Source: Bdellovibrionota bacterium (GTDB taxonomy: Bacteria; Bdellovibrionota_C; UBA2361; CALJRW01). Taken from it: a stretch of DNA of 64,000 nucleotides. The DNA lies in NCBI GenBank assembly GCA_041740355.1, contig JBGSMD010000015.1:1-64000 (forward strand), written 5' to 3'. The notes under the pieces were generated by a model that saw nothing but the letters and a program-made list of their open reading frames with translations, made no database searches and was not told where the DNA came from. A program made the position numbers and the translations under genes. Below, piece by piece: positions 1 through 26,012 of the stretch. The stretch's first letter is position 1. The number at the start of each line of letters is the position of its first letter.

Positions 1-146
1 GTGTAACCGTTGGAGTCACTGTCGGTGTAACCGTTGGAGTCACTGTCGGTGTAACCGTTGGAGTCACTGTCGGTGTAACCGTTGGAGTCACTGTCGGTGT
101 AACCGTTGGAGTCACTGTTGGTGTAACCGTTGGAGTCGGAGTCGGA
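1..146. repeat. 24-bp coding tandem repeat (gtgtaaccgttggagtcactgtcg), at least 5.5 copies, encoding PTVTPTVT on the minus strand
   Basis: Directly visible near-perfect tandem copies with no spacers. Confidence 0.95.
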
Positions 147-715
147 AAGACAACACCACAAGTACAAAAACAAGCATCATCTAAAACTTCACCAGTATAA
201 TTTGCTGGTAAACTTTCTTTAGATGATAGAGGATAACGAACTCTGATTTGGTTACAATGAACCCCGTTGGCATTAATATCAAGACTGGTAATTACCTTGG
301 CAACTTGAATAGTCCAAGTTTCTCCAGGAGAAAGAAGCCCATCCCCATTATCACCAAAATATGAAAGATCAGCATTTACTTGCCCATTTAAGACATTTGG
401 AATGGCACTAGGAAGTGCAACCTTATTATCAGAAACAATTATTTTGCTCGCTGGAACAGCCGCATCTCCATCGTTGCTTATTTCATAGCTAAAAACGGCT
501 CGAGAATTTAATGGAATAGAAAAATTACTATTAGTTGATGTCGCGCAATTGGTACTTGCATTTACAGCTTTACGCTCTTGAAGATCCGCACCAGGGCACA
601 AAGCTTGTGCGAAAGTATTTTGAATGCTGATAAATAAAGATAATAATAAGGTCAAGCCAAAAAACAATGTCTTATTACTATTCATTTTTATCTTCATTCG
701 AAACTTTCTGCTCAT
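1..715 (-). CDS. Secreted Cys-containing DUF11-like Ig-domain protein with PTVT low-complexity linker; 3' end runs out of the window
   Basis: Not in the ORF track. Read manually from ATG 715 (ATGA overlap with the upstream stop at 712-714; alternative ATGs 697 and 685): MSRKFRMKIKMNSNKTLFFGLTLLLSLFISIQNTFAQ signal peptide, then FSYEISNDG...GDGLLSPGETWT, then (PTVT)n to the window edge. Confidence 0.85.
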   Translation of the reverse strand, partial: MSRKFRMKIKMNSNKTLFFGLTLLLSLFISIQNTFAQALCPGADLQERKAVNASTNCATSTNSNFSIPLNSRAVFSYEISNDGDAAVPASKIIVSDNKVALPSAIPNVLNGQVNADLSYFGDNGDGLLSPGETWTIQVAKVITSLDINANGVHCNQIRVRYPLSSKESLPANYTGEVLDDACFCTCGVVFPTPTPTVTPTVTPTVTPTVTPTVTPTVTPTVTPTVTPTVTPTVTPTVT

Positions 716-3700
716 GGTTCAACAATCCTTTCGGCCGTCCAGTTGTAGGAAATGCTTTGATTTTTGAAATTATTTACACTATCTGCTAGCATTTTGCCAG
801 TTTTAATATCAATTTTTGCAGTGGATTGGGTAATTAAATCACCAGCCTTTACCATAAAATGTAGATAAAGATTGCCGTCATCCCCAATTTGCACTCCACC
901 CATTAGGGGATAGCTACTTAATCTTGTTAAAAATTCGCCATTGGGGGCAAGTATCTTTTCTTCAATAATTGACAATCCAGCAATACGATCTCCCTTTGTA
1001 AAAATTGAAAGATGCCCTTTATTACTTTTATCTTGCGCTGATTTCCATTCCCACAAACCTTTTACTTTCTTTAAGTCTTCCTTACTAGCTAATTTTCTAC
1101 TTCCAAGATTAAAGGGTTTATCACCCTCTTTATTATTAGAACTGGTTGATTTCACTAAATTTTCTTCGGCTATTTTGCTTAACCTAGAGATCTCACTCTG
1201 GGCATATCCTTCGTTAACATAACTTCCTGAGTACCAATCAACTGTGCGCCCGCTTAATACTTTACTATCAGTTTCTAAAGTAAAGCCATTAATAGAATAT
1301 AAATCTTTAAATTCATCTTCTAAATCAAAACTTACTTTTAGAGATTTCAAGCCGTGTTTAGTAGCATCCACCACTTCAGAAACCTCACTTATGGCATTGG
1401 AGTTATCATCAAACCATAAAGATATGTCTTTCAACTCAGAGCCCTTTAAAAATCCGTCTTTATTTAAATCTAAACTGGCTAAGGCTTCATAGCCGTTTTC
1501 CCAAGGAGTTTTCGATTTGCCTCTTCCTCCAAATGTATAATTACCAAATAACATGGAGCCATCTTTTATTTTACCCGATTTCTTAGGATCGTAAACAACG
1601 AGCGGTCGATTGCCATTTGCCTTCCAAATAACCCAATTAGAAGTATCTTTTGGATTAAGCGCAAACTGACGGGCAACATAGGGACTAGATATATCTTTAT
1701 CAATAATGAGTGAAATTGGAGATAATGCAGCAGAAAGATTAACTTCTCCACAGACGTCATATGTTGGATCAATACCCTGTTGATAACTATCAATTACATT
1801 ACAATTACCATCTAAATAGAAAGCACTGGTATAATTTTCATGGAGTGTACCATCAATTCCAATTTTTGATCCAATTAGATCCATTGCACTTTGACCGATT
1901 TGATCGCCATTCCTATTATGGAAACCATCATTTATAAAATTTGAAAATAGTCTAGTGCAAGTATTTGGATAGTTATTATAGCAGTCACCATCTTCTAGCG
2001 CTTTATTATAAGAAGCATTAGCCGAGCCAAACCGAGATGTCGGCAATCCATTAACAGTAGAATAGCTTGTATCGGTCAGATATCCGTATATATTAAAACC
2101 AGTAATTTCTTCTACCAATCTGTAATAATCGAGATCGTCTTCAAGATCCTGATATACTGTTTTTCCGAAAGTTGCGCCATAAAAAGTTTCAACGTGACCT
2201 GATACTGTCGGGTTAAATCTATCAGGAGCATCTTGCGTTTCAGTCTGATATAAATTGGCATTACTATTATAAGATCTGCCTACAATACTGGCCACACAGG
2301 AGTTTCGAGCTTGAATGTCTTTTTTCCATTCAACAAAATAAGGAAAATCAGAGCAACTAAAACCATTTATTCTACTATTTTCGTTTTGAGCACAAGTTTC
2401 TATTACTTCCCATTCTTTTCCACCGCTCGAAAAAGGTGTAGATTTGTAAAGATTTTCACGATAATCAATATCATTTTCATCTGAATTATATCCAGTTATA
2501 AACTTCCAATAACTTATCTCAATGTCATTAAATCTTAACCGCACATATTCGCACTGATCTAATCTGCAGTCTAAGCTGCACTTACCTGTTGTGTCTGCTG
2601 CAAAATCACATTCTTCAGTAGCATTAACAATCCCATCCCCACAATAAGTGCATTCTGTCTTTACCACTACATAATCACCTGATGGATCCTGCGGTTCGAT
2701 CCATTCGGACGCTCCGGGACGTCTGCAATTTAATGGGTTGAGATCGTCATGTGATAGTCCTAATGTCATTGGCCCTTTGATGGCTACATCACATGTTTCA
2801 CTGCCTTCAACCACACCATCCCCACAAAATGGACCTTCCGAGTTTACGCAGAAAGCTGCATAGTCCTTTGCAATCACAATTTTATTATCAGCTACTGTTA
2901 GTCCTTTAACTGTTGCATCATTTCGATGTGGGCCTGCGGGAACATAAAATTCTCCCGTCTCGTAAACCCAGGTTTCTCCTGGATCTAATTGATCATAGGG
3001 CTGGTCATCTCCATAGATTAAAGTTAAACTTGAAGGAGGACTACTCTCTTTTCTAGAAAGTCCTGCTACAACAGGATCGTCAATCTCCACATTCTTAACA
3101 GCGGGCATTCCTGTTGGCAAACTAACTTCATAAGTAAATCGCACCGTTTTATTGTTAGAAATATATGCATTGCTTGCGTTACAACTTGAAGTGTCTAACT
3201 TAACTTCGGTAGAACCTCCCAGATCTTCCTGGTAAACTAATTTAACAATTTTTATTCCCGCATTGACGCTATTACAATACGCTCCACTACAAAGTCCAAC
3301 TTTCTTAACAACTTTCAAATTTGGAATTCCCACTACGCAAAAAGAAGCCTTGTCACTTGATTCACTAATACTTCCATCTAACGATGTGCCTTCTACAATA
3401 ACAAGATTAGAATGACCACCAGTTGTTAATTTCCTATTCTTAACTTCATAAATCCATTTTTCATTAACCTCTAAAAAGAGATTATTATTAATATCTCCAA
3501 TATTATTGGTGCCTGTTCCAGTCACTGCAACTGGAGTTCCCAACTTATTATCACCTAGATTAACATACCTAACTGGATTTGGATTTCCATCCTTTAGCGT
3601 AACTTCAAATCTAAAATCTACCGACTCTTGTCTGGTAACATAAAAATCCGAAGTATTTTCCACGTTCGAACAATTGGTAATGTCATGGTTTCTCTGCGCA

Positions 3701-4512
3701 AAATCACCCACAATTGACTTAGCAACAAGCTTCTTAATCTCCACCTCGCCGCGACCAACAACACAAATGCCAACCGAACTAACGCCTTTAATTGTATTTC
3801 TATAAATATCTTGACCAAAAACTGTTGCCGTATTTAACAGTGCCCCTTGAGTGTTGGCATCATAAGTAAAGTCAGCAATGTCTATTTCACCATAATCTGC
3901 ACCAGATGGATAAACATAAGAGTCCCTAGCATTAATCGTAACTGGGGTTGGCAATGTAAATCCACCAGCACCAAAAATCAAACTATCTTCGATGCGGTTA
4001 ATAGTTATCGGTTCCGCGCTATCATTAAACACTTCAAAAGTATAAAGAACCTTAGAATTCTGGACGATCACTTTGTTATTATTTATGGCAGTCTCAATAT
4101 TACTTAAGTTACAGTCCTCACCATTAGTAATATTCGTATTAATATCATCATTAACATAGAGCGACCCTTCCACTTCAGCTCTTTTTACAACTCGTAATTC
4201 TGTAGTGTAAATTAATTTACAACCGGAATTTGGTGTATTATTTAGAATCTCATCATTAATTGAAGTACAACCACTCACATCCGAATTTGTGTTAGGCTCC
4301 GTCTCTGCACCTGTTCCATAATCACTTCCATCACACTGTTCTGTCGGATGATCCACTATCCCATTGCCACAACCGTAATTTGTAAATTCTGTAGTTACTG
4401 ACAAAGAATGAGAGGTGCCGTCCTCAGCTACGCAAAAAGAATTTACAACAAGGCTTAGTATTGCCCCTAATAGGAGATAACTTATCAATTTACTTTTAGT
4501 CAGCAATCTCAT
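712..4512 (-). CDS. Large secreted surface protein: Cys-rich CGDG repeats, DUF11-like Ig domains, C-terminal FrpC-like Ca-binding module
   Basis: Signal peptide; CGNG/CGDG..E.CD motifs; repeated K..V.F.YEV..LDPGETW..N.A.V..FCV domains; LFGNYT..NGYEALASLDLNKDG..LWFDDNSNAISE motifs. Confidence 0.85.
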   Translation of the reverse strand: MRLLTKSKLISYLLLGAILSLVVNSFCVAEDGTSHSLSVTTEFTNYGCGNGIVDHPTEQCDGSDYGTGAETEPNTNSDVSGCTSINDEILNNTPNSGCKLIYTTELRVVKRAEVEGSLYVNDDINTNITNGEDCNLSNIETAINNNKVIVQNSKVLYTFEVFNDSAEPITINRIEDSLIFGAGGFTLPTPVTINARDSYVYPSGADYGEIDIADFTYDANTQGALLNTATVFGQDIYRNTIKGVSSVGICVVGRGEVEIKKLVAKSIVGDFAQRNHDITNCSNVENTSDFYVTRQESVDFRFEVTLKDGNPNPVRYVNLGDNKLGTPVAVTGTGTNNIGDINNNLFLEVNEKWIYEVKNRKLTTGGHSNLVIVEGTSLDGSISESSDKASFCVVGIPNLKVVKKVGLCSGAYCNSVNAGIKIVKLVYQEDLGGSTEVKLDTSSCNASNAYISNNKTVRFTYEVSLPTGMPAVKNVEIDDPVVAGLSRKESSPPSSLTLIYGDDQPYDQLDPGETWVYETGEFYVPAGPHRNDATVKGLTVADNKIVIAKDYAAFCVNSEGPFCGDGVVEGSETCDVAIKGPMTLGLSHDDLNPLNCRRPGASEWIEPQDPSGDYVVVKTECTYCGDGIVNATEECDFAADTTGKCSLDCRLDQCEYVRLRFNDIEISYWKFITGYNSDENDIDYRENLYKSTPFSSGGKEWEVIETCAQNENSRINGFSCSDFPYFVEWKKDIQARNSCVASIVGRSYNSNANLYQTETQDAPDRFNPTVSGHVETFYGATFGKTVYQDLEDDLDYYRLVEEITGFNIYGYLTDTSYSTVNGLPTSRFGSANASYNKALEDGDCYNNYPNTCTRLFSNFINDGFHNRNGDQIGQSAMDLIGSKIGIDGTLHENYTSAFYLDGNCNVIDSYQQGIDPTYDVCGEVNLSAALSPISLIIDKDISSPYVARQFALNPKDTSNWVIWKANGNRPLVVYDPKKSGKIKDGSMLFGNYTFGGRGKSKTPWENGYEALASLDLNKDGFLKGSELKDISLWFDDNSNAISEVSEVVDATKHGLKSLKVSFDLEDEFKDLYSINGFTLETDSKVLSGRTVDWYSGSYVNEGYAQSEISRLSKIAEENLVKSTSSNNKEGDKPFNLGSRKLASKEDLKKVKGLWEWKSAQDKSNKGHLSIFTKGDRIAGLSIIEEKILAPNGEFLTRLSSYPLMGGVQIGDDGNLYLHFMVKAGDLITQSTAKIDIKTGKMLADSVNNFKNQSISYNWTAERIVEP

Positions 4513-4567
4513 CCAATTAATACCAAGTTAAACTTTTATCTATTAACATACCTTTTACGCTAATTTT

Positions 4568-7500
4568 TTAATTTCCCTTAATTACTACCTGCGCAGTACT
4601 AGAGTGTAGTCCATTATTTGCATAAGGACTAAATTTAAAACTATCTATTTTAAAATCAAACGATGCCCCAGCAGCCACAACTCGCGGTAAGGAATGTGGT
4701 GGTAAGGATAAATTTGGCCAGGCACTGCCGCCAGCAATTATTTGATCAATCACGTTTTCCAAAACTAATGGACCGGCTCCCACATTTTCAATCAAATATT
4801 CAACCTTACTGTTAGCTACTACACTTCCTCCAACAATTTCTAAGTCTGGATAATACTCTGCTAAATAAACATTATTTGTAGTGTTTTGCTCATCTTCCAG
4901 GACTGGCGCACCAAGCGATGGTAGTGCAAAAACTTTCCTGCTACTGCTAATCAATGCACCTGAACTAAAATTAAAGATAGACTTCGTAATTCTTACTCGC
5001 TCTACTAGGTCGTAAGTACAAGTAGCAGAACAAGAATCTACGTTTGCAGGCTTAGTTGTCTGTACACCTGCGGCTAAGTTAAAATCTGTGCCATCACAGG
5101 ATTCACCTGTAGTCATGTTGCCATCACCGCAATATGGATTAATTGTACAAGTTGCATTACATACTTGTCCTGCAAGCCCAGCTTGAACTCCAGCCGCTAA
5201 ACCAAAATCTGTACCATCACAAGATTCACCTGTAGTCATATTGCCATCACCGCAATATGGATTAATTGTACAACTTACATTACAGACTTGACCGGCAAGC
5301 CCAGCTTGTACGCCAGGAGCTAGACCAAAGTCTGTGCCGTCACAAACCTCTGTTCCAGTTCTGTTGCTATCTCCACAATATGGATTAATTGTACATGTGG
5401 TATTACAGACTTGCCCAGGTAAACCAGCTTGAACACCTGCCGCTAAACCAAAATCTGTTCCATCACAAAGCTCGGTGCCAGTTCTGTTGCTATCGCCGCA
5501 AAACGGATTAATTGTACAACTCGTATTACAGACTTGCCCAGGTAATCCAGCTTGAATACCAGCAGCTAGTCCAAAATCTGTTCCATCACAAAGCTCGGTG
5601 CCAGCTCGATCGCTATCTCCACAAAACGGATTAATATTACAACTCACATTACAGACTTGACCAGGTAAACCAGCTTGAATGCCAGGAGCTAAACCAAAAT
5701 CTGTTCCATCACAAAGCTCGGTTCCACTTCTGTTGTTATCCCCGCAAAACAGGATAATAGGAGTAAGCGTACAACTTGCACTACAGACCTCCCCAGGTAA
5801 ACCAGCTTGAATACCAGCCGCTAAACCAAAATCTGTTCCATCACAAAGCTCGGTTCCTGTTCTGTTACCATCGCCGCAAAACGGATTAATTGTACAACTC
5901 GTATTACAGACTTGCCCAGGTAATCCAGCTTGAATACCAGCAGCTAGTCCAAAATCTGTTCCATCACAAAGCTCGGTGCCAGTTCTGTTGCTATCTCCAC
6001 AAAATGGATTAATATTACAACTCACATTACAGACTTGACCAGGTAATCCAGCTTGGACGCCAGGAGCTAAACCAAAATCTGTTCCATCACAGGACTCTCC
6101 TGTAGTCATATTGCTATCACCGCAAAATGGATTAATCGTACAACTCGTATTACAAACTTGCCCTGCTAGTCCAGCTTGAACTCCTGCCGCTAAACCAAAA
6201 TCTGTTCCATCACAAAGCTCGGTTCCAGTTCTGTTGCTATCTCCACAAAACGGATTAATTGTACAACTCGTATTACAGACTTGCCCAGGTAATCCAGCTT
6301 GGACGCCAGCAGCTAGTCCAAAATCTGTTCCATCACAAAGCTCGGTGCCAGTTCTGTTGCTATCTCCGCAAAACGGATTAATTGTACAACTCGTATTACA
6401 AACTTGACCAGGTAAACCAGCTTGAACTCCAGCCGCTAAACCAAAATCTGTTCCATCACAGGACTCTCCTGTAGTCATATTGCTATCACCGCAAAATGGA
6501 TTAATTGTACAACTCGTATTACAAACTTGACCAGGTAATCCAGCTTGAACTCCAGCCGCTAAACCAAAATCTGTTCCATCACAAAGCTCGGTGCCAGTTC
6601 TGTTGCTATCTCCACAGTATGGATTGATTGTACATGTGGCATTACAGACTTGACCAGGTAAACCAGCTTGAACTCCTGCCGCTAAACCAAAATCTGTGCC
6701 ATCACAAAGCTCGGTGCCAGTTCTGTTGCTATCTCCACAATATGGATTAATCGTACAACTCGTATTACAAACTTGCCCTGCTAGTCCAGCTTGAATACCT
6801 CCAGCTAAACCAAAATCTGTACCATCGCAAAGCTCTTCGGCATTGCGATTTCCATCTCCACAACCCGTTACGCAAAAAGTTGCTACTGCTGACGCGGAAA
6901 CACCCAGAGTTGGTATGGCATTTAGATCATTAACAGTTGCCGTATTAGTATGAACACCTTGAGTGTAGCCTGTAGTCTGTGTAAACGTAAGTGCATTAAA
7001 CGGTGGATCGCTTGGATTTAAATCAAATGTTGAATTGCAACAAACAGGTCCAGGAAATCCACTGACTAAATCTTCAATTTTTAAGTCATAGAGCGGAGCA
7101 GTACCAGTATTTTCTACAGTATACCTAAATTCTACTGGAACACCTTCTCTGACATACTTATCTGTAGTTAAGGAACTAATTGCATTACAATCTTTAGTAG
7201 TTAGAATCTCTTGTTCTGTCCAACCTATCCCCGCCCAACGAAACTCTTTTTTAATCGAAACGCTGGCAGTAGTTAATTGACAATCAGCATTACATTTTGT
7301 GTGATTAGGATCAGTAATATCAGTGGCATCACAAGCCTCTGTACCATTTTTCTTATTATCACCACAAAAATCAATTTTACAGGTCGACAAATTACAAGAT
7401 GGGAACTTCTGAGCAGCTGTTGGATAACCAGCTAACGTATTATAATTATTAACTCCATCACACTCTTCACTTGCCCTGTTTGCCTTCAAATCACCACACC

Positions 7501-7948
7501 ATTCCGCCTGGCAAGTCGTTAAATTACATGAAGGATCAACTTGAGCTGGTGTCAGCGCCGGGTCAAAAATGCCAGAATCACAACTCTCTACAGGCTTATT
7601 CACCGTTCCATCTCCACAAGACGTACAGTCAAGTCGACAGCTACCTCCTGTAGCAATATCCGGTGGATCGCATGATTCTCCTAACGAAGGATCTGTTAGT
7701 AAATCTCCACAATAGGCACAAACCAAACATTCACAACTAAGGCAACCACAGACACTCGGATCATTGGTCAACGTTGGTTGAGTTCCATCAGGACAACTAG
7801 TTCTACTGGCCGCTGTTTCGGGGGATGCTTCAATCAGATTTAAAGGAGGTGTAGGACTAGGAGCCGCAAAGCTATATTCCGCGATGGAGATTTGAAAAAC
7901 CCCAAGCAATATAAAAGAAAAAACTGAGCACTTGATAAAGTTAAACAT
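4568..7948 (-). CDS. Large secreted Cys-rich repeat protein (Myxococcus Cys-rich/DUF4215-like) with two Ig-like domains
   Basis: Signal peptide; about 15 tandem 41-aa CGD..E.CDGTDFGLA..QAGL.GQVCN..C.INP units plus N-terminal CGD repeats. Confidence 0.9.
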   Translation of the reverse strand: MFNFIKCSVFSFILLGVFQISIAEYSFAAPSPTPPLNLIEASPETAASRTSCPDGTQPTLTNDPSVCGCLSCECLVCAYCGDLLTDPSLGESCDPPDIATGGSCRLDCTSCGDGTVNKPVESCDSGIFDPALTPAQVDPSCNLTTCQAEWCGDLKANRASEECDGVNNYNTLAGYPTAAQKFPSCNLSTCKIDFCGDNKKNGTEACDATDITDPNHTKCNADCQLTTASVSIKKEFRWAGIGWTEQEILTTKDCNAISSLTTDKYVREGVPVEFRYTVENTGTAPLYDLKIEDLVSGFPGPVCCNSTFDLNPSDPPFNALTFTQTTGYTQGVHTNTATVNDLNAIPTLGVSASAVATFCVTGCGDGNRNAEELCDGTDFGLAGGIQAGLAGQVCNTSCTINPYCGDSNRTGTELCDGTDFGLAAGVQAGLPGQVCNATCTINPYCGDSNRTGTELCDGTDFGLAAGVQAGLPGQVCNTSCTINPFCGDSNMTTGESCDGTDFGLAAGVQAGLPGQVCNTSCTINPFCGDSNRTGTELCDGTDFGLAAGVQAGLPGQVCNTSCTINPFCGDSNRTGTELCDGTDFGLAAGVQAGLAGQVCNTSCTINPFCGDSNMTTGESCDGTDFGLAPGVQAGLPGQVCNVSCNINPFCGDSNRTGTELCDGTDFGLAAGIQAGLPGQVCNTSCTINPFCGDGNRTGTELCDGTDFGLAAGIQAGLPGEVCSASCTLTPIILFCGDNNRSGTELCDGTDFGLAPGIQAGLPGQVCNVSCNINPFCGDSDRAGTELCDGTDFGLAAGIQAGLPGQVCNTSCTINPFCGDSNRTGTELCDGTDFGLAAGVQAGLPGQVCNTTCTINPYCGDSNRTGTEVCDGTDFGLAPGVQAGLAGQVCNVSCTINPYCGDGNMTTGESCDGTDFGLAAGVQAGLAGQVCNATCTINPYCGDGNMTTGESCDGTDFNLAAGVQTTKPANVDSCSATCTYDLVERVRITKSIFNFSSGALISSSRKVFALPSLGAPVLEDEQNTTNNVYLAEYYPDLEIVGGSVVANSKVEYLIENVGAGPLVLENVIDQIIAGGSAWPNLSLPPHSLPRVVAAGASFDFKIDSFKFSPYANNGLHSSTAQVVIKGN
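5012..6862. repeat. 123-bp coding tandem repeat, about 15 units
   Basis: Units counted in the translation; most differences between units are synonymous; one unit has a 3-codon insertion. Confidence 0.95.
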
Positions 7949-19268: not shown

Positions 19269-20012
19269 TTATTGATATTTATTTACAAAATCTCGAAACT
19301 TACCAACAATCTCCGGTGAGCTTACCTTTAATAAATCAACGTGTTTGATTGCAGGCAATAAGATTATTTCCTTACTACCAACTTTTTCTTTATATAAACT
19401 TTCACTCATGGAATATGGAATAACTTCATCCTCAATACCATGAAAAAAAAGAATTGGGGTATTAATGGTTGATACTTTTAGCAGGGAATTAAAGCGAGGT
19501 TTAATCATTCGCCAGAGTGGCAATCTAGGAAACATAAACCTAGCCATTTCAATATTATTAGAGATTGTTGAATCAATAATTCCACAACTCACAGGATATT
19601 TAGTAAGTCCTTCAATTGCGATAGCCCCACCCAACGAAATACCATGAAGCACAATTCTAGAATAATCGAATTTCAGCTCTTCACGAACAAACTTCATCAC
19701 AAGATCTAACGCCTGATAACAACCAGCCTCACTTGGTTTACCACTTGATTGGCCATATCCCGGATAATCAAAAAGTAAGTAGGAAAAACCTGTGTTCTCA
19801 TAGAAATTATAAACACCATCAAGATTAGAAATATTAGAGGCATTCCCATGACAATTAACAACTAAGACTGGAGAATCAACTAATCTGTAGGCAATTTTTA
19901 TTTCTAGGCCTTGCCCAAGTAGTGTTTGCACTGTGCAGCCACTCGGAATCCGCGAAGCATCATAATCAGGATTGGGTTTAAAGGTAATTCGATCTTGAAT
20001 ATAATTAAGCAC
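19269..20012 (-). CDS. Alpha/beta hydrolase (ABHD13/17-like)
   Basis: HGNASN, DYPGYGQS, GISLGG, HGIEDEVIP and His motifs. Confidence 0.9.
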   Translation of the reverse strand: MLNYIQDRITFKPNPDYDASRIPSGCTVQTLLGQGLEIKIAYRLVDSPVLVVNCHGNASNISNLDGVYNFYENTGFSYLLFDYPGYGQSSGKPSEAGCYQALDLVMKFVREELKFDYSRIVLHGISLGGAIAIEGLTKYPVSCGIIDSTISNNIEMARFMFPRLPLWRMIKPRFNSLLKVSTINTPILFFHGIEDEVIPYSMSESLYKEKVGSKEIILLPAIKHVDLLKVSSPEIVGKFRDFVNKYQ

Positions 20013-20109: not shown

Positions 20110-20913
20110 TTAGGCGACTTCTTCTGGTGCTTCCACTGCTGCTTCTTTTGCAGCTAAGCATACAGTATTGTCAGACGCCAAATGATAAACATCTAGTTCA
20201 TCACCAAAACGCTGAAATCCATATCTTACGGCACCTCCATTATCACGCAATAAATCGCGACATGCTTTATCTTGATCAGAAAACCAAAGTTCCTGATACT
20301 TAGAAAGCAACTCAGTATCATCAAGAAGTTCACGATCAATCATCGCAAGACATCTAGTATCAATCATTACTTTTCCTACCGAGGTTGGCGCATTCGCAAT
20401 AATCTCTTCGAAGTCTACTTCATCATGTGAAGAATCATGAATTACAATTCGACAAGAATAAGGATTACGCAGAATTCTGTAATTACCAGGGCTTAATTCT
20501 AAGACAACTCCACCGAATTTCTTAATCACTTCATTCTTTTCCGTCGGATCAGAATCAATTAGATCCAACAAAGAACGATGTAATTGAGGGTTAGCCAACA
20601 TAAATTGATCAATAATCACCATGTGACCACTTTCAATTGTGATTCTTTCACGAAGATTCCCGCTGTTATTATCGGAGCGTCCATATCTTCCTCGAGATCC
20701 ACCACCGCCACCTTGACGACGTGCGCCACCGCCACGCCAGTTGCTACCTCCGCCACTGCTTTGACCACGACCACCACCAAATCTGCGGCCGCCACCACCT
20801 TGTCCACGACCACCGCCACTACCAGTTCTTTGGCGTCCGTATCGTCCACCACCAGTTCCACCATTTCCACCACCGCTTCCGCGAGAATCTGAATTTCTCA
20901 TTGCGTTCTCCAA
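20110..20913 (-). CDS. Hypothetical protein with N-terminal RGG/Gly-rich disordered region
   Basis: About 80-aa Gly/Arg-rich N-terminus, globular C-terminus, own terminator. Confidence 0.8.
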   Translation of the reverse strand: MENAMRNSDSRGSGGGNGGTGGGRYGRQRTGSGGGRGQGGGGRRFGGGRGQSSGGGSNWRGGGARRQGGGGGSRGRYGRSDNNSGNLRERITIESGHMVIIDQFMLANPQLHRSLLDLIDSDPTEKNEVIKKFGGVVLELSPGNYRILRNPYSCRIVIHDSSHDEVDFEEIIANAPTSVGKVMIDTRCLAMIDRELLDDTELLSKYQELWFSDQDKACRDLLRDNGGAVRYGFQRFGDELDVYHLASDNTVCLAAKEAAVEAPEEVA

Positions 20914-21593
20914 TTATATATAAAAAGTTTTTTGGCTTAGCTAGACTTACCTAATATCGATATTTAAAATTCTTTACTAATCTCTAAGATTCAAGTTAGA
21001 GATTACCTAGTAATGTGAAAATACACGTTACTGGAACAGTTTAATTAATATTTAAAGTATATTTGAAAAAATTTATTTTTCGATCAAAACAGGCAATTTC
21101 AATTATAAGTATTAATTAAATCTTAAAACTAAATTCACTAGGATCTACAAAATAAATGGCTTCAATTCATTCTCGATTAGAATTTATGGCGATATTTAAA
21201 GTAAAGTCAGCAATCTTAAAAAAATTAATCACAATGATTCTTTTACTGATGTAAATAAGCTCAATTTAGGGAGACTTTTCACAGCTGTGATAGCCAAACA
21301 AATTATCTGCAAAACAGATTGCTATAAACTATTAATTAAAATTATTGTGATTATCGTAAATCTTTGATTCAATTTAATGACCACATAAGTAGTAAGCTCC
21401 AAGCAAGAACCTTAAATTTTAAGGGAAAATATTTTCTGGGCTTACCATAATTTATTGACTTAGAACTTCTAAAGAAATTCTTAAATGCTACACTTAGCTC
21501 TAAAAGTCACTAACCTGCTAGTCAAAGAATCAAAGTAAGTACTTAATATAACTTAATTTTCTGCTTTTATCCAGTGCCGTCCTTATTTACTAA

Positions 21594-22208
21594 CTATTCT
21601 AGATCATTAGTTATTTTATATTTACAGTCATCCCGCACGAGACACTTAGAACATTTGCGTAAATCTGGAGTAGCCTTAACAGGCAGATCATCCTCCAAGA
21701 CTGCTCGCATTTCCGCAAGAAAGACATCCAACCATGCTTGTTTTTTTTGAGTATTTAAAATCTTAACACTGCGAGCTTTTTTCCCAAGAATTAGATACCC
21801 ATAAGGGGGTCGCTTACCTTCGAATTCTTCAATCAAGCGCATGCTAACTAAAAGCTCGACAACAAAGCGATCGCGGATCTTATTAGCTAATGGTTTACGT
21901 TCAATTGGAATTAGAAATCCACCTTCTCGCAAAAGCGCATCTGGCCTAGCTCTGAGTAATTGAATGTCAGAAACATACTCCTTCGTTTCTTTAAAAATGT
22001 TGCTAGGAGTCAAAATGGAATTTACTTCTGGGCTAACCCCCGAATCTTTTCGTTTTTTTATAGCTATCGTCGAGAATACTTCTAAAACAATTACTAAAAC
22101 AACTAAAAGAATCAGTAACCAAAAAATTAGCGATGTAGTTTTTGATAGCTCGGTAAAAAGCAAATTGAGTTCATTTCCTAACTGACTAATATATTCTTTA
22201 ATCATCAA
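21594..22208 (-). CDS. Membrane-anchored Cas4-like PD-(D/E)XK nuclease, C-terminal part
   Basis: N-terminal TM helix; RPD..IPIERK; GKRPPYGYL; C-terminal CSKCLVRDDC. Confidence 0.8.
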   Translation of the reverse strand: MMIKEYISQLGNELNLLFTELSKTTSLIFWLLILLVVLVIVLEVFSTIAIKKRKDSGVSPEVNSILTPSNIFKETKEYVSDIQLLRARPDALLREGGFLIPIERKPLANKIRDRFVVELLVSMRLIEEFEGKRPPYGYLILGKKARSVKILNTQKKQAWLDVFLAEMRAVLEDDLPVKATPDLRKCSKCLVRDDCKYKITNDLE

Positions 22209-22218
22209 TTGGGGCGAT

Positions 22219-22491
22219 CTAAAATGAGCGTATTTGTGTAAAAAGGTAGAGAATAATCAAGAAAAAGATCATAAAAATGATCAAATTAGTCGCCCAAGTA
22301 AAGTAGCGAGCAGCATCAAAATCCTCTAACCAAAGCTTCTTTCTTTCCAGACGTTCAGGCTCTGAGGTTTGCTCAGATAGAATAATTTTTTGGCGATGAA
22401 GCAAATTCCAGCTCTCTGGGCAATGTAAATAACTTGCGACTTCTTTTGCACTAATAATAATCCGACCATCTTTAGATAATTCAGCCATCAA
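22219..22491 (-). CDS. Small membrane protein carrying the Cas4 N-terminal Cys motif
   Basis: ISAKEVASYLHCPESWNL followed by a C-terminal TM helix; 10 bp upstream of the Cas4-like gene. Confidence 0.75.
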   Translation of the reverse strand: MMAELSKDGRIIISAKEVASYLHCPESWNLLHRQKIILSEQTSEPERLERKKLWLEDFDAARYFTWATNLIIFMIFFLIILYLFTQIRSF

Positions 22492-22646
22492 GAAAATAAA
22501 TTGGAAAATTAAGACTAAGTAAATATGTTAACGTAGTATGCTTTCAGCAGTTTTAACTTGTCAAGATAAACTTCAATTCGCACGAAAATAATTAAACAAA
22601 TACACCAAGACAATTATCCCTGCCATCAAATCTTGAGTAGTGAAAT

Positions 22647-22794
22647 TATAGTAAACCCAAAAAAGGTTTTCCGAAAAACAGATTAACTAAGACTGTAGCT
22701 GACTTTTATCTTTTTTAACCTGAAGTAGTTAAAGAATGTAAATTTATAGATAAACCTTTGGTTTAACTCTGTTTTTTTAGTTGGGTTTACTATT
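22647..22794. repeat. ~147-bp element with 13-bp terminal inverted repeat
   Basis: atagtaaacccaa ... ttgggtttactat. Confidence 0.6.
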
Positions 22795-22821
22795 TGTCTG
22801 TTAGCTCCCGCTGGTCGCTTC

Positions 22822-22879
22822 TATAGTCATAATGTATTTAATAATTTCCTAACGGAAATTATTTTTTGGAATGACTATA
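22822..22879. repeat. Solo hairpin module related to the 146-bp family
   Basis: tatagtcat...aatttcctaacggaaatt...atgactata. Confidence 0.7.
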
Positions 22880-22892
22880 AAATAATAAAAAT

Positions 22893-23375
22893 TTATTTTT
22901 TACTGACAATTTTTTGAAGAATATCGTTAAGTTTAGAACCAGTTAATAAGTTCTGTCTAGCAGTTGTTGTTAGATCATAGACGGACCTTAAATCAGGTGC
23001 AGTTAAAATTTCTTCATAACGACTATCACAAATAGGAATATGTGCAGTTTCGATAATGTATTGAACTTCTGGAGATTGATTATTTGTTATCTTCCAAAAT
23101 GCGTATTTTGCGGTTGCTGAATAAAAACGACAGCTAAGTACAAATGAATTCATCTCAGTAACTTCAATCGCAACTACTAAATCTTGATCCCCACCCTTTA
23201 GACTAAAATTAAATTTCAAGGCTTCTAACCAAGCTTTCTTAGCACGATAAGCTGAGATTTCATCGGGATAATTACCATGAATTGTATCAGTGTCCGGATC
23301 AAAACAGACTCCTTCAAAATATGGAATTTCCTTAATTTGTGGCAACTGTTTTGTTTGGATTTGAACTGAATTCAT
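22893..23375 (-). CDS. Hypothetical protein
   Basis: 160-aa ORF with AAGG RBS upstream. Confidence 0.7.
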   Translation of the reverse strand: MNSVQIQTKQLPQIKEIPYFEGVCFDPDTDTIHGNYPDEISAYRAKKAWLEALKFNFSLKGGDQDLVVAIEVTEMNSFVLSCRFYSATAKYAFWKITNNQSPEVQYIIETAHIPICDSRYEEILTAPDLRSVYDLTTTARQNLLTGSKLNDILQKIVSKK

Positions 23376-23452
23376 TACTTTACCTTGATAAAAACCTGCA
23401 CTTTTTAACTGATACTCCTAATTAAAGAGTATTAAAGTTAACTGCGTATTAA

Positions 23453-23480
23453 GCATCGGCTGAAAGATTAGGAAACTTAA
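23453..23480 (-). promoter_or_regulatory. Possible sigma-28-type promoter for 22893-23375
   Basis: TTAAGTTT-N12-GCCGATGC; spacing is 1 bp longer than consensus. Confidence 0.4.
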
Positions 23481-23610
23481 GCTTTATTAAAAGACCAGAC
23501 AGATAAAAAACAATAATATATTCAAGATGTTAAGCTTTTAAAATTACAATTTCTTCAGCTTACTAGGAAATAAAGTAGGCTCCAAATTAATTTCGGAAAA
23601 GGCCATTTAT

Positions 23611-23674
23611 TATAGTTATGACAAAAATCACAAAACTAACTTTTAAATATTCGGCAATTCCATTTTGTCATAAT
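23611..23674. repeat. Solo module B of the 146-bp element
   Basis: tatagttatgacaaaaatcacaaaactaactttt...ttttgtcataat. Confidence 0.8.
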
Positions 23675-23788
23675 TTCACATTCAGCTTTTGCGACTCCAG
23701 CCATAGTCTTTCTCTGTTTTAGCATCTGGAATAATGGAATAAACGATCTTCGCCTTACATCTCCCAAATTATTGCACCTAAGTTGGGT

Positions 23789-24541
23789 TTAAATATAAAA
23801 AGATAACTGATTTGACTGTAAGCCTAAGAAACTTACATTTTGTAAAATTGCCTCTCTTAAATGTTCGTCCCAAGTGTTAGGGTCTGAGCGAAAATGCTGA
23901 ATGTTACTGGAATAAAAAGGGAAGGTTAATGTTTGAGTATTTTTATTAGTACTAAGTGTTAACTCTTCCTGACTAGCAGATGTCTGATAACTAGCAACGG
24001 TGACACCTTGATCGGCAAAACTTAAAGCCAAAATTCCTGTTAGTAGATCATGATTACTATGCGTTAGTAATAATTTAGGTTTTAATTCGGTAACTAGGCG
24101 ACGAGCGGAAATTGCTAAGGAGAGCGCTGTTTTCTGTAATTTGCTAAGAGCCACTTGATCTGCTGCAAAATTTTGAGAATATTTCTGTAATAACTCGACA
24201 CCGGCAAGTGATAAAATATTTTCTAAAAAAGTGCTATCAGCAAAATTTTGATTGATCCTTTTTAAATCTTCAGAATTTAAATATTTAGATAAGGCTTGAT
24301 CTTTTAAGCTTGACCAAGAGATCAAAGTCTTTTGAGAATTCATGCAGACAACACAAGGCCGCTTATGATTAACTTGATTGTAAAAATCAAGACTACAACG
24401 TTCTAAACAACCATCACATTTAATGGCCACAACTTCGGACTTATGATGATGTAAGTAACTTGATAATAGAAAGATGAAATTTGAGGATACTAAATCAGCA
24501 TCAGTGGAGTTGCCATAAGGACTAAATACAGCAATCCTCAT
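23789..24541 (-). CDS. Hypothetical protein with Cys cluster; weak resemblance to the N-terminal domain of GT-B/capsule biosynthesis proteins
   Basis: MRIAVFSPYG start; CDGCLERC...RPCVVC. Confidence 0.6.
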   Translation of the reverse strand: MRIAVFSPYGNSTDADLVSSNFIFLLSSYLHHHKSEVVAIKCDGCLERCSLDFYNQVNHKRPCVVCMNSQKTLISWSSLKDQALSKYLNSEDLKRINQNFADSTFLENILSLAGVELLQKYSQNFAADQVALSKLQKTALSLAISARRLVTELKPKLLLTHSNHDLLTGILALSFADQGVTVASYQTSASQEELTLSTNKNTQTLTFPFYSSNIQHFRSDPNTWDEHLREAILQNVSFLGLQSNQLSFYI

Positions 24542-25242
24542 AGAGTCTGAACGTTCTGTAAAGCATTCGTCTGACGATTTCGTTCTAGATAGAAATAAAC
24601 AACTTCTGGTGCTGGAGTTTGTAGGTGATAGTTATTAATTAACATCTCCCCTTGACTAGTAATTTGAGTTAAACCAGATTTTAAATAATCATCACTAATT
24701 TTAAGTTCTTGAACGGAACCCGATAAAAGCTGATTAGTTGGTTTTTGTTCTGCGCGCACAAGCCCTGCTGGCAAACCATTATTATAGACCACGCCTGAAG
24801 CATTAATCGCGACAAGAGAACTAGTGATACCTTCCGCCGAGCGACAGATGCCATTTAATTCAAAATTATGAGATGAGTTGATGTAGCGTGCTTCAAATCG
24901 TAGGATTTGATCAGTGCCTAATAATTCTGTTAAACAAACGGAGTTACTTAAATCTAATTGTGCTTGCTGGGGACATTTTAACTGCAAAGAAACTCCATAC
25001 AAACCTTGATACTGACTAAGCAAGGCTGGAAAAACTTGATCTAAGATAATTCCATCTGGCTGAGAAAGTCGGGCACCTTCCATCGTAATTTGAACAGTCT
25101 CGAAATCATTTCCAAAAATACTAAGCGTTAATTCTACTGGATAAGTTGCCGAGATTGATCCGGAATATGGGAAAAAATGGATCGCTGTTCGAATCGTAGA
25201 ATCATGATAGGCAAAGGAAAGCCAATGATAAACTTTTGACAT
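24538..25242 (-). CDS. Hypothetical protein
   Basis: 234-aa ORF translationally coupled to both neighbours. Confidence 0.7.
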   Translation of the reverse strand: MSKVYHWLSFAYHDSTIRTAIHFFPYSGSISATYPVELTLSIFGNDFETVQITMEGARLSQPDGIILDQVFPALLSQYQGLYGVSLQLKCPQQAQLDLSNSVCLTELLGTDQILRFEARYINSSHNFELNGICRSAEGITSSLVAINASGVVYNNGLPAGLVRAEQKPTNQLLSGSVQELKISDDYLKSGLTQITSQGEMLINNYHLQTPAPEVVYFYLERNRQTNALQNVQTL

Positions 25243-25244
25243 TT

Positions 25245-26012
25245 TTATTCCATCACTTGTTGATTAAAATTAGATCGTGAATATTTTTGTTCTAATAATC
25301 GCACTGCCAGATCATTACTGGAGTAACTTACTATTCTTAAATATGCTTGTTGATCATGATGTGGATCCAGTTCAAGATATTCGGCAAACTGCTCTTCGAT
25401 GATTAGCGTTTCTGATCCATAACCTTTAATTTTTACTTCTAGCTCCGGAGAACGAGTGCCAGTGTAAAGACGAATTTTCAGCATGCTATCAGTTTGACCC
25501 AAATTATTTAGGGCAATCATATTTTGAGACTTAGTAGATAAATGTAATGGGAAAAATCCAGCTTTTTCTCGACTTAATTTACAAACTGGACTAACCATCA
25601 AGTCTTGATTACTAGAAGAAATCTCACAAAAATGTGTTGTGCCAACAGCAGAAACTATCTCTACACTTCCTTGGCGAATGCCAGCTTGTAATTTGCAATT
25701 GCCCGAGAGGCCATCCAGCTCAATCATTCCTGGAAGTCCATGAGTGAACTTAAGCATTAATTGATTGGTTAGCTGCCCATCAATATCATAAATTTTTAAT
25801 TGATGTTGATTATGAGCATCCTGTCGGGCTGGAGAAAGATAAACTGTAGATCTAAAATACTCATCTGCTGCAAACCAAAAAAAAGACCGAGTATATTCGG
25901 CTACCTGTGGTGCAGCAGCAATTGTACTGTCATGACTATTGCTATTTGAATCTGAAAAAATAAAATTTTCCTGCATACTTATTAGGGGATCACTGGTTAA
26001 ACTACGAATCAT
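25245..26012 (-). CDS. Hypothetical beta-rich protein
   Basis: 255-aa ORF, first gene of a tight three-gene operon. Confidence 0.7.
   Translation of the reverse strand: MIRSLTSDPLISMQENFIFSDSNSNSHDSTIAAAPQVAEYTRSFFWFAADEYFRSTVYLSPARQDAHNQHQLKIYDIDGQLTNQLMLKFTHGLPGMIELDGLSGNCKLQAGIRQGSVEIVSAVGTTHFCEISSSNQDLMVSPVCKLSREKAGFFPLHLSTKSQNMIALNNLGQTDSMLKIRLYTGTRSPELEVKIKGYGSETLIIEEQFAEYLELDPHHDQQAYLRIVSYSSNDLAVRLLEQKYSRSNFNQQVME

Follow-up and report, generated by a model that had tools for sequence, protein, structure and literature searches.

Two adjacent genes on the minus strand of the window, that is, the whole 64,000-nucleotide stretch analysed here (positions 1 to 64,000 of contig JBGSMD010000015.1 from a Bdellovibrionota bacterium), probably encode the two subunits, denoted A and B, of one membrane-anchored iron-staple protein of the Cas4/Dna2 type. 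The case for a two-chain, membrane-tethered Cas4-like protein with a composite iron-sulphur (Fe-S) site is well supported by sequence comparison and consistent with the structural models. By sequence, A supplies the N-terminal strand and helix, the first cysteine and, in almost all relatives, a putative metal-ligand histidine, and B supplies the D..ExK motif of the nuclease core and the C-terminal CxxCx5C cluster. Many uncultured Bdellovibrio-like bacteria share this arrangement, with the two parts encoded either by separate genes or by a single fused one, and it seems not to have been described before.

The two open reading frames (ORFs) and their motifs are listed below; here and throughout, counts out of 69 refer to 68 related loci plus the window. 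Transmembrane (TM) segments were delineated by a Kyte-Doolittle hydropathy scan (19 residues, threshold 1.6).

22219-22491, minus strand: ORF A, the small subunit; 89 amino acids (aa) if started at the ATG (22488) and 90 aa if started at the TTG (22491).
22420..22422, minus strand: codon (TGC) of Cys23 of A, in the motif YLHCPESW, the putative first Fe-S ligand; Cys in 69/69 sequences.
22339..22341, minus strand: codon of Lys50 of A; 67/69 family members have His (G..LH.EW) at this position.
22237..22293, minus strand: TM1, residues 66-84 of A; Kyte-Doolittle mean over the 19-residue window 2.44.
21594-22208, minus strand: ORF B, the large subunit; a 204-aa ORF, of which 203 aa count from the ATG (22205), with TM2, a PD-(D/E)xK core and CxxCx5C.
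22074..22130, minus strand: TM2, residues 26-44 of B, followed by KKRK; Kyte-Doolittle mean 3.28.
21894..21941, minus strand: catalytic core motif D89...E102-x-K104 (RPDA...IERK) of B; D, E and K each in 69/69 sequences.
21843..21857, minus strand: QxxxY position of B; the window has E117 and S121 (VVELLVSM).
21624..21653, minus strand: C185-x2-C188-x5-C194 (CSKCLVRDDC) of B, putative Fe-S ligands 2 to 4; present in 65/65 sequences that reach the region.

The genes are arranged head to tail, with 13 nucleotides (nt) between the stop codon of A and the ATG of B (10 nt to its TTG) and with B in a different frame. ORF A, which starts MAELSKDGRIIISAKEVASYLHCPESW and contains ISAKEVASYLHCPESW, comprises the N-terminal strand and helix of the Cas4 fold followed by TM1, which stops five residues short of the stop codon; in ORF B, about 25 N-terminal residues precede TM2. 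The codons of C23, D89, E102, K104, C185 and C194 were confirmed by eye in the window DNA. The initial annotation of this stretch, which described an N-terminal Cys motif set apart in a gene of about 90 aa ending in a TM helix, next to a gene of about 204 aa with an N-terminal TM helix, RPD..ExK and CSKCLVRDDC, is accurate for both genes. Among profile libraries, B is matched by the PADLOC Cas4 models (best E 2.6e-10) and, as its best NCBIfam match, by TIGR03491 (E 8.8e-9, residues 61-200 aligned to profile positions 75-209 of 462). By the curated models, then, the Cas4 likeness of the window's own B appears real, if weak. ORF A alone has no match in Pfam, NCBIfam or PADLOC.

Evidence that A and B belong together comes from the comparison of related genomes. 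A protein search with B produced 106 relatives (41-73% identity, nearly all of 189-227 aa), which, where their sources name them, are called Cas4 (“CRISPR-associated exonuclease Cas4”), Dna2/Cas4-domain or RecB-family nuclease. Twenty-two of the 106 were aligned, and the two longest of these, P0101 (271 aa) and P0106 (242 aa), are extended at the N-terminus by a segment that aligns to ORF A. A genome scan with this 22-sequence alignment, the patterns of which are specific to the window's subfamily, detected 68 loci, nearly all in metagenome-assembled genomes (MAGs) labelled Bdellovibrionota, Bdellovibrionales, Oligoflexia or Deltaproteobacteria; one is labelled Dadabacteria, one Chthoniobacter, and several just “bacterium” or Pseudomonadota. 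In all 68, an A-type sequence lies directly upstream of the B-type part on the same strand: 67 were recovered by tblastn with the window A (E 3e-33 to 0.056), and the remaining one, L042, nonetheless has the motif [AS]x[ED][IVL]xx[YFH]xxC, which a motif search found in 69/69 sequences, the window included. The two parts are fused in a single ORF of 271-295 aa in 31 of the 68 loci (one additional fused ORF ends at a contig edge) and are separate genes in the other 37. Recurrence of the pair or of its fused form in 68/68 loci is far beyond chance. The conserved pair that the initial annotation proposed to look for in gene neighbourhoods therefore exists, with co-occurrence in 37/37 split loci and fusion in the 31 others; it had suggested that similar pairs may exist in other phyla, but the family lies almost wholly in Bdellovibrionota-type MAGs and is not spread widely over phyla.

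The split loci do not share a common junction. The junctions all differ, with same-frame stops (TAA, TAG and TGA) as well as +1 and +2 frame relations, and in each case B has its own start codon, at a gap of -13 to +43 nt (starts were chosen by a simple rule, so that individual gaps are approximate). The closest relative of the window, L001 (72-73% identity), is split as well. A profile of 38 A-type proteins matched 487 cluster representatives among 1.84 billion at E <= 0.001 and 110 at E <= 1e-10; among the best 150 of the 487, 123 are 53-195 aa long and 27 are of fused size (242-373 aa), and some of the matches are members of a sister subfamily described below. A TM1-loop-TM2 hairpin connects the A-type and B-type parts of the single-chain relatives, and it is within this loop that the split members have their gene break. 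Exactly one hydrophobic segment on each side of the junction is found in 63 of the 69 sequences.

The fused proteins reveal which fold the two chains would make together. Their alignments run end to end across the TM insert, residues 12-270 matching positions 2-246 of the 247 in the Pfam profile PDDEXK_1 and residues 12-272 matching positions 5-159 of the 161 in a PADLOC Cas4 model, and several relatives exceed the PF01930 cut-off (L001, 27.2; L003, 34.8; L008, 40.4; L011, 43.2; and L037, 34.6 bits). A profile of the fused form compared with PDB sequences yielded one match with E < 0.01, the type I-C Cas4 8d3l (E 1.3e-4), and this alignment covers both the N-terminal stretch (f..C..W...G..LH) and the C-terminal one, from ExK to the Cys cluster. 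In the N-terminal stretch, which is weak on its own, Cys23 of A is aligned to the N-terminal Cys of Cas4, and the family His to the G..LH of 8d3l. The equivalence of this His with a Cas4 metal ligand follows from the 8d3l profile alignment together with the description, in PMC13621843, of His62 of SSO0001 (4IC1), which binds the metal along with Asp99, residue 113 and Lys115. If the alignment is right, the small chain of most family members would contribute one ligand to the cluster and another to the active site.

Structural modelling points in the same direction. The fold comparison was made with the fused relative L037, not with the window pair. The AlphaFold2 model of L037 (predicted local distance difference test score, pLDDT, 80.8; predicted TM-score, pTM, 0.68) consists of a short strand, two helices, two long helices (42-85 and 92-131) and an alpha/beta core, and displays the iron-staple PD-(D/E)xK fold, in which an N-terminal helix is clamped to the C-terminal Cys cluster. 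A Foldseek search with this model produced 22 PDB matches at E <= 0.001, the best being Dna2 (5eaw, E 4.5e-7), Cas4 (8d3l_J, E 1.0e-6, TM-score to target 0.59) and AdnAB (6ppr, E 8.6e-6), with ACE1, MGME1, Exo5 and lambda exonuclease among the others. With Dna2, AdnAB, MGME1 and Exo5, the TM-scores to the query are 0.29-0.46, and the root-mean-square deviation over the long alignments is high owing to the TM hairpin.

A complex of window A, window B and a 4Fe-4S cluster was modelled with a separate alignment for each chain and scored 0.83, against 0.00 for the best of three controls; the mark used for such models was reached by 116 of 157 solved complexes and by 2 of 215 mismatched pairs, a calibration that holds only roughly here. 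The model runs have at least 87% of contacts in common, and the partner pLDDT is at least 72. In the modelled interface, residues 9-30 of A, Cys23 included, face residues 78-90, 112-121, 159-171 and 184-196 of B, with C188 and C194 included and residues 184, 188-190 and 193-194 in contact with this segment; residues 45-57 of A contact the core, and one face of A 60-77 packs on one face of B 30-51, that is, TM1 on TM2. Of the four cysteines, whose convergence the initial annotation proposed to examine, Cys23 of A and C188 and C194 of B are interface residues in the model. Since the two chains correspond to one split gene, and structures of single-chain relatives have been solved, the success of the model attests to likeness with the Cas4 fold and is not an independent proof: it suggests that the chains rebuild this fold and does not measure binding, split-gene halves being prone to pass.

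Within the window's subfamily, the first Cys and a Trp four positions past it are present in 69/69 sequences, as are the D, E and K of D..ExK, the window included; the three C-terminal Cys are present in 65/65, the other four sequences ending before this region. The Cys of the small protein, the lack of conservation of which the initial annotation had named as a refutation, is therefore invariant. The His of G..LH.EW in the A part is found in 67/69 sequences, the exceptions being the window (K50) and L001 (M); the Q of QxxxY likewise in 67/69, replaced by E in the window (E117) and in L001; and the Y in 66/69, replaced by S in the window (S121) and L001 and by H in L008. The initial annotation overlooked both the metal-ligand His that the small chain usually appears to provide and its apparent loss, along with Q and Y, in the window. 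The window and L001 form a long branch (stem 0.74), with a mean distance to the other tips of 2.1 vs a median of 1.56. Two database relatives of the window show related changes: P0003 has ERN in place of ERK, so that the catalytic Lys is gone, plus E and N at the Q and Y positions, and P0294 has E and H there.

Erosion of the nuclease site goes further in a sister subfamily (P0165-P0177, P0181, P0188, P0200, P0228 and P0255-P0290), no member of which is encoded in the window and in which the TM1-TM2 linker is longer, the fused forms are 292-373 aa and the B-type split forms are about 200 aa. Across 31 fused proteins of this subfamily, each of the four Cys is kept in 31/31 and the Asp of D..ExK in 28/31; the His equivalent is R in 28 and K in 3, so that His itself occurs in 0/31; the Glu of ExK is Asp in 27 and other residues in 4; the Lys of ExK is kept in just 15/31; and the Tyr of QxxxY is His in 27 and Tyr in 1/31. 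Judging by these alignments, the features that the whole family keeps without exception are the cluster ligands and the membrane hairpin. Since the Cys ligands are kept while the nuclease residues erode, Fe-S binding at the membrane would be the constant feature of the family, and DNA cutting may not be.

Several of these observations weigh against a membrane-anchored nuclease. The window copy misses the His, Q and Y that most relatives keep, P0003 has lost the catalytic Lys as well, and the replacement of His, of Glu and, in about half of the proteins, of Lys in the sister subfamily argues against the idea that the wider family is conserved for cutting DNA. Window B also scores under the cut-offs of the curated Cas4 models (Pfam PF01930, 18.0 bits against 22.7; TIGR00372, E 3.4e-7 and 30.3 bits against 65), and the window copy as a whole lacks features of Cas4 proper, namely, scores above those cut-offs, His and QxxxY, a single soluble chain and a cas neighbourhood. 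The topology comes from the hydropathy scan, at whose threshold 6 of the 69 sequences do not show the two segments; the neighbouring genes, described below, name no pathway; and nuclease activity, Fe-S binding and membrane insertion are all predictions from sequence.

The alternative that gains most from these points is a non-catalytic Fe-S membrane protein, in which the Cas4 fold would have been kept for redox or iron sensing or for DNA binding, at least in the window's lineage and the sister subfamily; we regard this as a possible, though on balance unlikely, account. It is favoured by the invariance of the four Cys (69/69 and 65/65, plus 31/31 in the sister subfamily) alongside the loss of His, Q and Y in the window and L001 and of Lys, too, in P0003, by the near-complete loss of the same positions in the sister subfamily (His 0/31, Lys 15/31, Tyr 1/31), and by the long branch that leads to the window and L001. 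Against it, D, E and K are invariant in 69/69 members of the window's own subfamily, as an active PD-(D/E)xK site predicts. Furthermore, mutation of the DNA-contacting Tyr of a Leptospira Cas4 left its DNase activity unperturbed, according to the abstract of PMC8610317, so that loss of the Y need not abolish cutting. With His, Q and Y replaced but D, E, K and the four Cys kept, cutting by the window's copy would probably be weakened or altered.

A bolder proposal, which we offer tentatively and hold to be doubtful, is that the subunit-bridging [4Fe-4S] cluster is itself the working part of the protein: cluster loading, which would depend on iron, oxygen or redox state, would decide whether the two chains of a Bdellovibrionota-specific membrane device assemble into a DNA-binding or DNA-cutting module on the inner side of the membrane, and several lineages, the window's included, would have moved on to a pure sensor or DNA anchor. 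If this were true, the repeated fission and fusion at the TM hairpin would amount to a natural experiment in making an iron-staple fold from two polypeptides.

The genomic context of the pair was characterized by clustering the ORFs that lie within 4 kb on either side of the 69 loci. The conserved neighbours in the window are as follows.

22893..23375, minus strand: c1, a 160-aa protein of no family; upstream and on the same strand in 60/69 loci, about 170 aa in the family.
20110..20913, minus strand: c2, 267 aa, a conserved neighbour; adjoins the module in 54/69 loci.
19269-20012: alpha/beta hydrolase; a neighbour in 26 loci.
23789-26012, minus strand: c11-c13, three consecutive genes of 250, 234 and 255 aa, overlapping or abutting; the set is kept in 16-18 loci.

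The gap between c1 and A is 105 nt in the family (median) and 404 nt in the window, and two of the nine loci without c1 have < 350 nt of upstream flank. In the window and in L001, the [c1-A-B] block is inverted relative to its flanks (c2 and the hydrolase at one end, c11-c13 at the opposite end), which suggests that the three genes move as a unit. In the fused clade, def and fmt lie downstream (clusters 7 and 6; identified by reading the sequences, not by a scan). Synteny with c1, c2, def and fmt is kept across genomes with a GC content of 0.33-0.66. This conservation of neighbours points to vertical inheritance and to a three-gene module.

None of the neighbours provides a functional clue. 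For c1, c2 and c11-c13, there was no Pfam match at E <= 0.1 save two weak sub-threshold ones and no PADLOC match; c11-c13 belong to no Pfam family, c2 has no match in Pfam, NCBIfam or PADLOC, and two further neighbour clusters likewise belong to no family. The AlphaFold2 model of c1 (pLDDT 81) produced no PDB match at E <= 0.001, and c1 has no family match and no usable match in the ESM Atlas; its invariant residues include D26, Y36, D38, R44, W49, C82, YAFW 91-94 and ETAH 109-112. The c2 protein has a Gly/Arg-rich (RGG-like) N-terminus of about 95 residues and a conserved C-terminal domain, ERIxIESGxxVxIDQFMLANPQ ... RDLLRDNGGAVRYGFQR.

At large, the window looks like an ordinary chromosome, with genes for haem A synthesis, SCO1, pyrimidine synthesis, acyl-CoA dehydrogenase, TonB, biotin synthase, a DEAD-box helicase, ClpB and glycosyltransferases. 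Unusually long AT-rich spacers (GC 0.26-0.28) flank the A-B pair, at 20914-21593 (680 nt) and 22492-22892 (401 nt). An Rfam search of 20800-23900 yielded nothing at E <= 1, and 20900-23500 contains 12 promoter-like sites, vs 10.5 expected, and 0 terminators, which is the background level. Away from the locus, the open-ended ORF 2..715 (minus strand) includes, at positions 1-168, a tandemly repeated 24-nt unit with 12-nt half-units, which would encode a short peptide repeat, and 712-7948 (minus strand) holds adjacent ORFs of 1266 and 1126 aa without a Pfam domain save a short DUF2623-like match in the second.

Could the pair be a mobile anti-phage defence module, or the adaptation Cas4 of a CRISPR system located elsewhere in the genome? 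The matches of B to PADLOC Cas4 models, the name “CRISPR-associated exonuclease Cas4” that sources give to relatives and the fact that a membrane-tethered nuclease could meet incoming DNA all lend this some appeal. In the window, however, no cas gene was detected among 44 ORFs (38 of at least 110 aa, scanned at E <= 1e-5, plus 6 near the locus; a cas2-sized ORF of < 110 aa elsewhere in the window would escape), nor is there a CRISPR-like direct-repeat array in the 64 kb; the initial annotation, too, had noted no cas1, cas2 or array, and with the exception of such small ORFs the scans agree. At the 68 related loci, no cas family was encountered among the conserved neighbours inspected or scanned within 4 kb on each side, although cas genes elsewhere in these genomes are possible. 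A, c1 and c2 have no PADLOC match, and the Cas4 models are the sole matches to the defence library; the GC content of A, B and c1 (0.33-0.37) is that of the window (0.36); and the synteny is chromosomal and kept across genomes that differ widely in GC. A defence function is accordingly not favoured, the CRISPR or defence-island origin finds no support in these scans, and we consider it improbable.

The orientation of the two chains in the membrane bears on another possibility, a periplasm-facing nuclease, with both soluble parts outside, that would degrade external or prey DNA. Bdellovibrionota include known predators, many of the loci come from Bdellovibrionota-labelled MAGs, and a two-helix hairpin taken by itself allows either orientation. 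The charge distribution argues otherwise. By the positive-inside rule, a positive flank marks the cytoplasmic side, and the 15 residues past TM2 contain, as the family mean, 4.25 Lys plus Arg (K+R) vs 1.44 Asp plus Glu (D+E), with 4 K+R and 1 D+E in the window copy; the loop between TM1 and TM2 (mean 21 aa, K+R 2.1, D+E 2.6) is slightly acidic. This strongly positive flank would place the core in the cytoplasm, and a cytoplasmic core connected through two helices implies that the N-terminal part is cytoplasmic as well. This placement fits the assembly of Fe-S clusters, which takes place in the cytoplasm, and in the alignment the N-terminus has no hydrophobic stretch resembling a signal peptide. 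A periplasmic nuclease thus seems very improbable, and the requirement that both soluble domains lie on the same side of the membrane, which had been raised when the heterodimer was first proposed, agrees with the TM pair, which by hydropathy and charge reads as an in-in hairpin.

The history of the split is documented by two trees. In the core tree (66 sequences, three truncated ones dropped), the fused and split members are divided by a single bipartition with support 1.0. A tree of 114 sequences separates the sister subfamily with support 0.998, and here the B-type proteins of about 200 aa, which start with Met and 20-30 residues ahead of TM2, fall among the fused members of that subfamily. 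On this tree, a Fitch count gives 6 changes between the split and fused states, whereas 500 shuffles of the labels averaged 37.6 changes and never gave fewer than 27; the ~200-aa proteins are database entries alone, with no genome context, which qualifies the count of split states. The break between TM1 and TM2 thus appears to have arisen or healed several times, yet rarely. For five close pairs, the nonsynonymous divergence (dN) is 0.10-0.34; 9 of the 10 gene comparisons show saturation of the synonymous divergence (dS), which leaves a single computable dN/dS, of 0.07; with synonymous sites saturated, this evidence is qualitative only, and the combination of low dN and saturated dS suggests that both genes are under purifying selection. 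An accidental frameshift, pseudogene or assembly error that cut one Cas4-like gene in two, which the fused relatives in 31/68 loci and the position of ORFs A and B in different frames 10-13 nt apart might bring to mind, is hardly credible and was rejected: the split recurs in 37/68 independent genomes, each with its own B start codon and junction, the closest relative L001 is split too, the state follows the tree (bipartition support 1.0; 6 changes vs a shuffle minimum of 27), the protein sequence is conserved while synonymous sites are saturated, and 123 of the best 150 of 487 matches to the A profile are 53-195 aa long. The initial argument from the location of the TM helices exactly at the split gains force from the junctions that vary by locus and the tree-structured state.

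The reading that we prefer, namely, that A and B are two subunits of one membrane-anchored iron-staple protein, can be laid out as follows. TM1 and TM2 would pack against each other in the inner membrane, with both soluble parts facing the cytoplasm, and one [4Fe-4S] cluster would be held by Cys23 of A together with C185, C188 and C194 of B. With ligands coming from both chains, cluster binding and subunit assembly would be coupled. The assembled domain would bind a DNA end or a single strand at the cytoplasmic face of the membrane and, in most of the family, cut it; in the window's copy, cutting is probably weakened or altered, and DNA binding or Fe-S-dependent binding may be retained. The pair would be a vertically inherited chromosomal gene of a Bdellovibrionota lineage, probably working with the upstream c1, rather than a part of a CRISPR system or of a mobile defence island. 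As to function, our best estimate is that the pair, in conjunction with c1, binds or processes DNA ends on the cytoplasmic side of the inner membrane, with cutting reduced or altered in the window's lineage. The heterodimer with an Fe-S site across two chains, as initially proposed, is borne out in its structural part, by co-occurrence, the invariant Cys and the same-side hairpin; the roles suggested for it, in DNA uptake, defence or redox sensing, stand as hypotheses.

To our knowledge, nucleases of the Cas4, Dna2 and AddB types are all soluble, single-chain iron-staple domains. Here, the same fold comes with a membrane hairpin, which roughly half of the members have cut; in these, two membrane proteins must come together to form the Fe-S cluster and, as a rule, the active site too. 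The family makes an inter-subunit [4Fe-4S] site in a nuclease fold accessible to testing, hints at the role of the “solo-Cas4” proteins found outside CRISPR loci, and provides, in c1-A-B, a conserved, lineage-wide gene module of uncultured Bdellovibrio-like bacteria. The retention of the Cys in two branches where the catalytic residues erode bears on the long-standing question of what purpose the cluster serves in these nucleases.

With regard to the literature, no Cas4-like protein that is split or anchored in a membrane came up in a full-text search whose coverage left out most subscription journals. The JCVI-syn3.0 paper describes a different, soluble Cas4-DEDD fusion (PMC13621843), and the words “transmembrane” and “split” are absent from the searched text of the Cas4 phylogenomic study of Hudaiberdiev et al. 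2017 (PMC5704561). Proteins of the B type are already automatically annotated as Cas4-like in public records.

Among known systems, the best NCBIfam match of window B, the TM0106-family RecB-like putative nuclease (TIGR03491), is a distant one, at 34.8 bits vs a cut-off of 97.45, and only the nuclease part of the 462-position model is covered. Dna2, AddB, AdnAB and Exo5/MGME1 resemble the A-B pair in that an N-terminal helix is held by an Fe-S cluster against the C-terminal part of the nuclease core, but these are soluble domains, mostly embedded in large helicase-nuclease proteins. Unlike the CRISPR adaptation module (CAS-Cas4), the window pair has no adjoining cas1, cas2 or array in the scans made; in its location outside any CRISPR locus it resembles solo-Cas4. 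With Cas4 itself (PF01930/COG1468; SSO0001 4ic1, Pcal_0546 4r5q and 8d3l), the family shares the D..ExK core, the N-terminal Cys, the C-terminal CxxCx5C and, in most members, the G..LH and QxxxY motifs; the window copy lacks the His, Q and Y of the latter two, and its B falls under the PF01930 and TIGR00372 cut-offs. Cas4 is a soluble, single-domain protein of about 170-220 aa, whereas in the present family an inserted membrane hairpin of two hydrophobic helices (about 60-70 residues) separates the N-terminal helix pair from the core, and the fused forms are 271-295 aa long. In 37/68 loci the gene is broken inside this hairpin, which leaves two chains to supply the Fe-S ligands and, normally, the His: the four cysteines that Cas4 carries in a single chain are, in the window, distributed over two and are invariant in the family.

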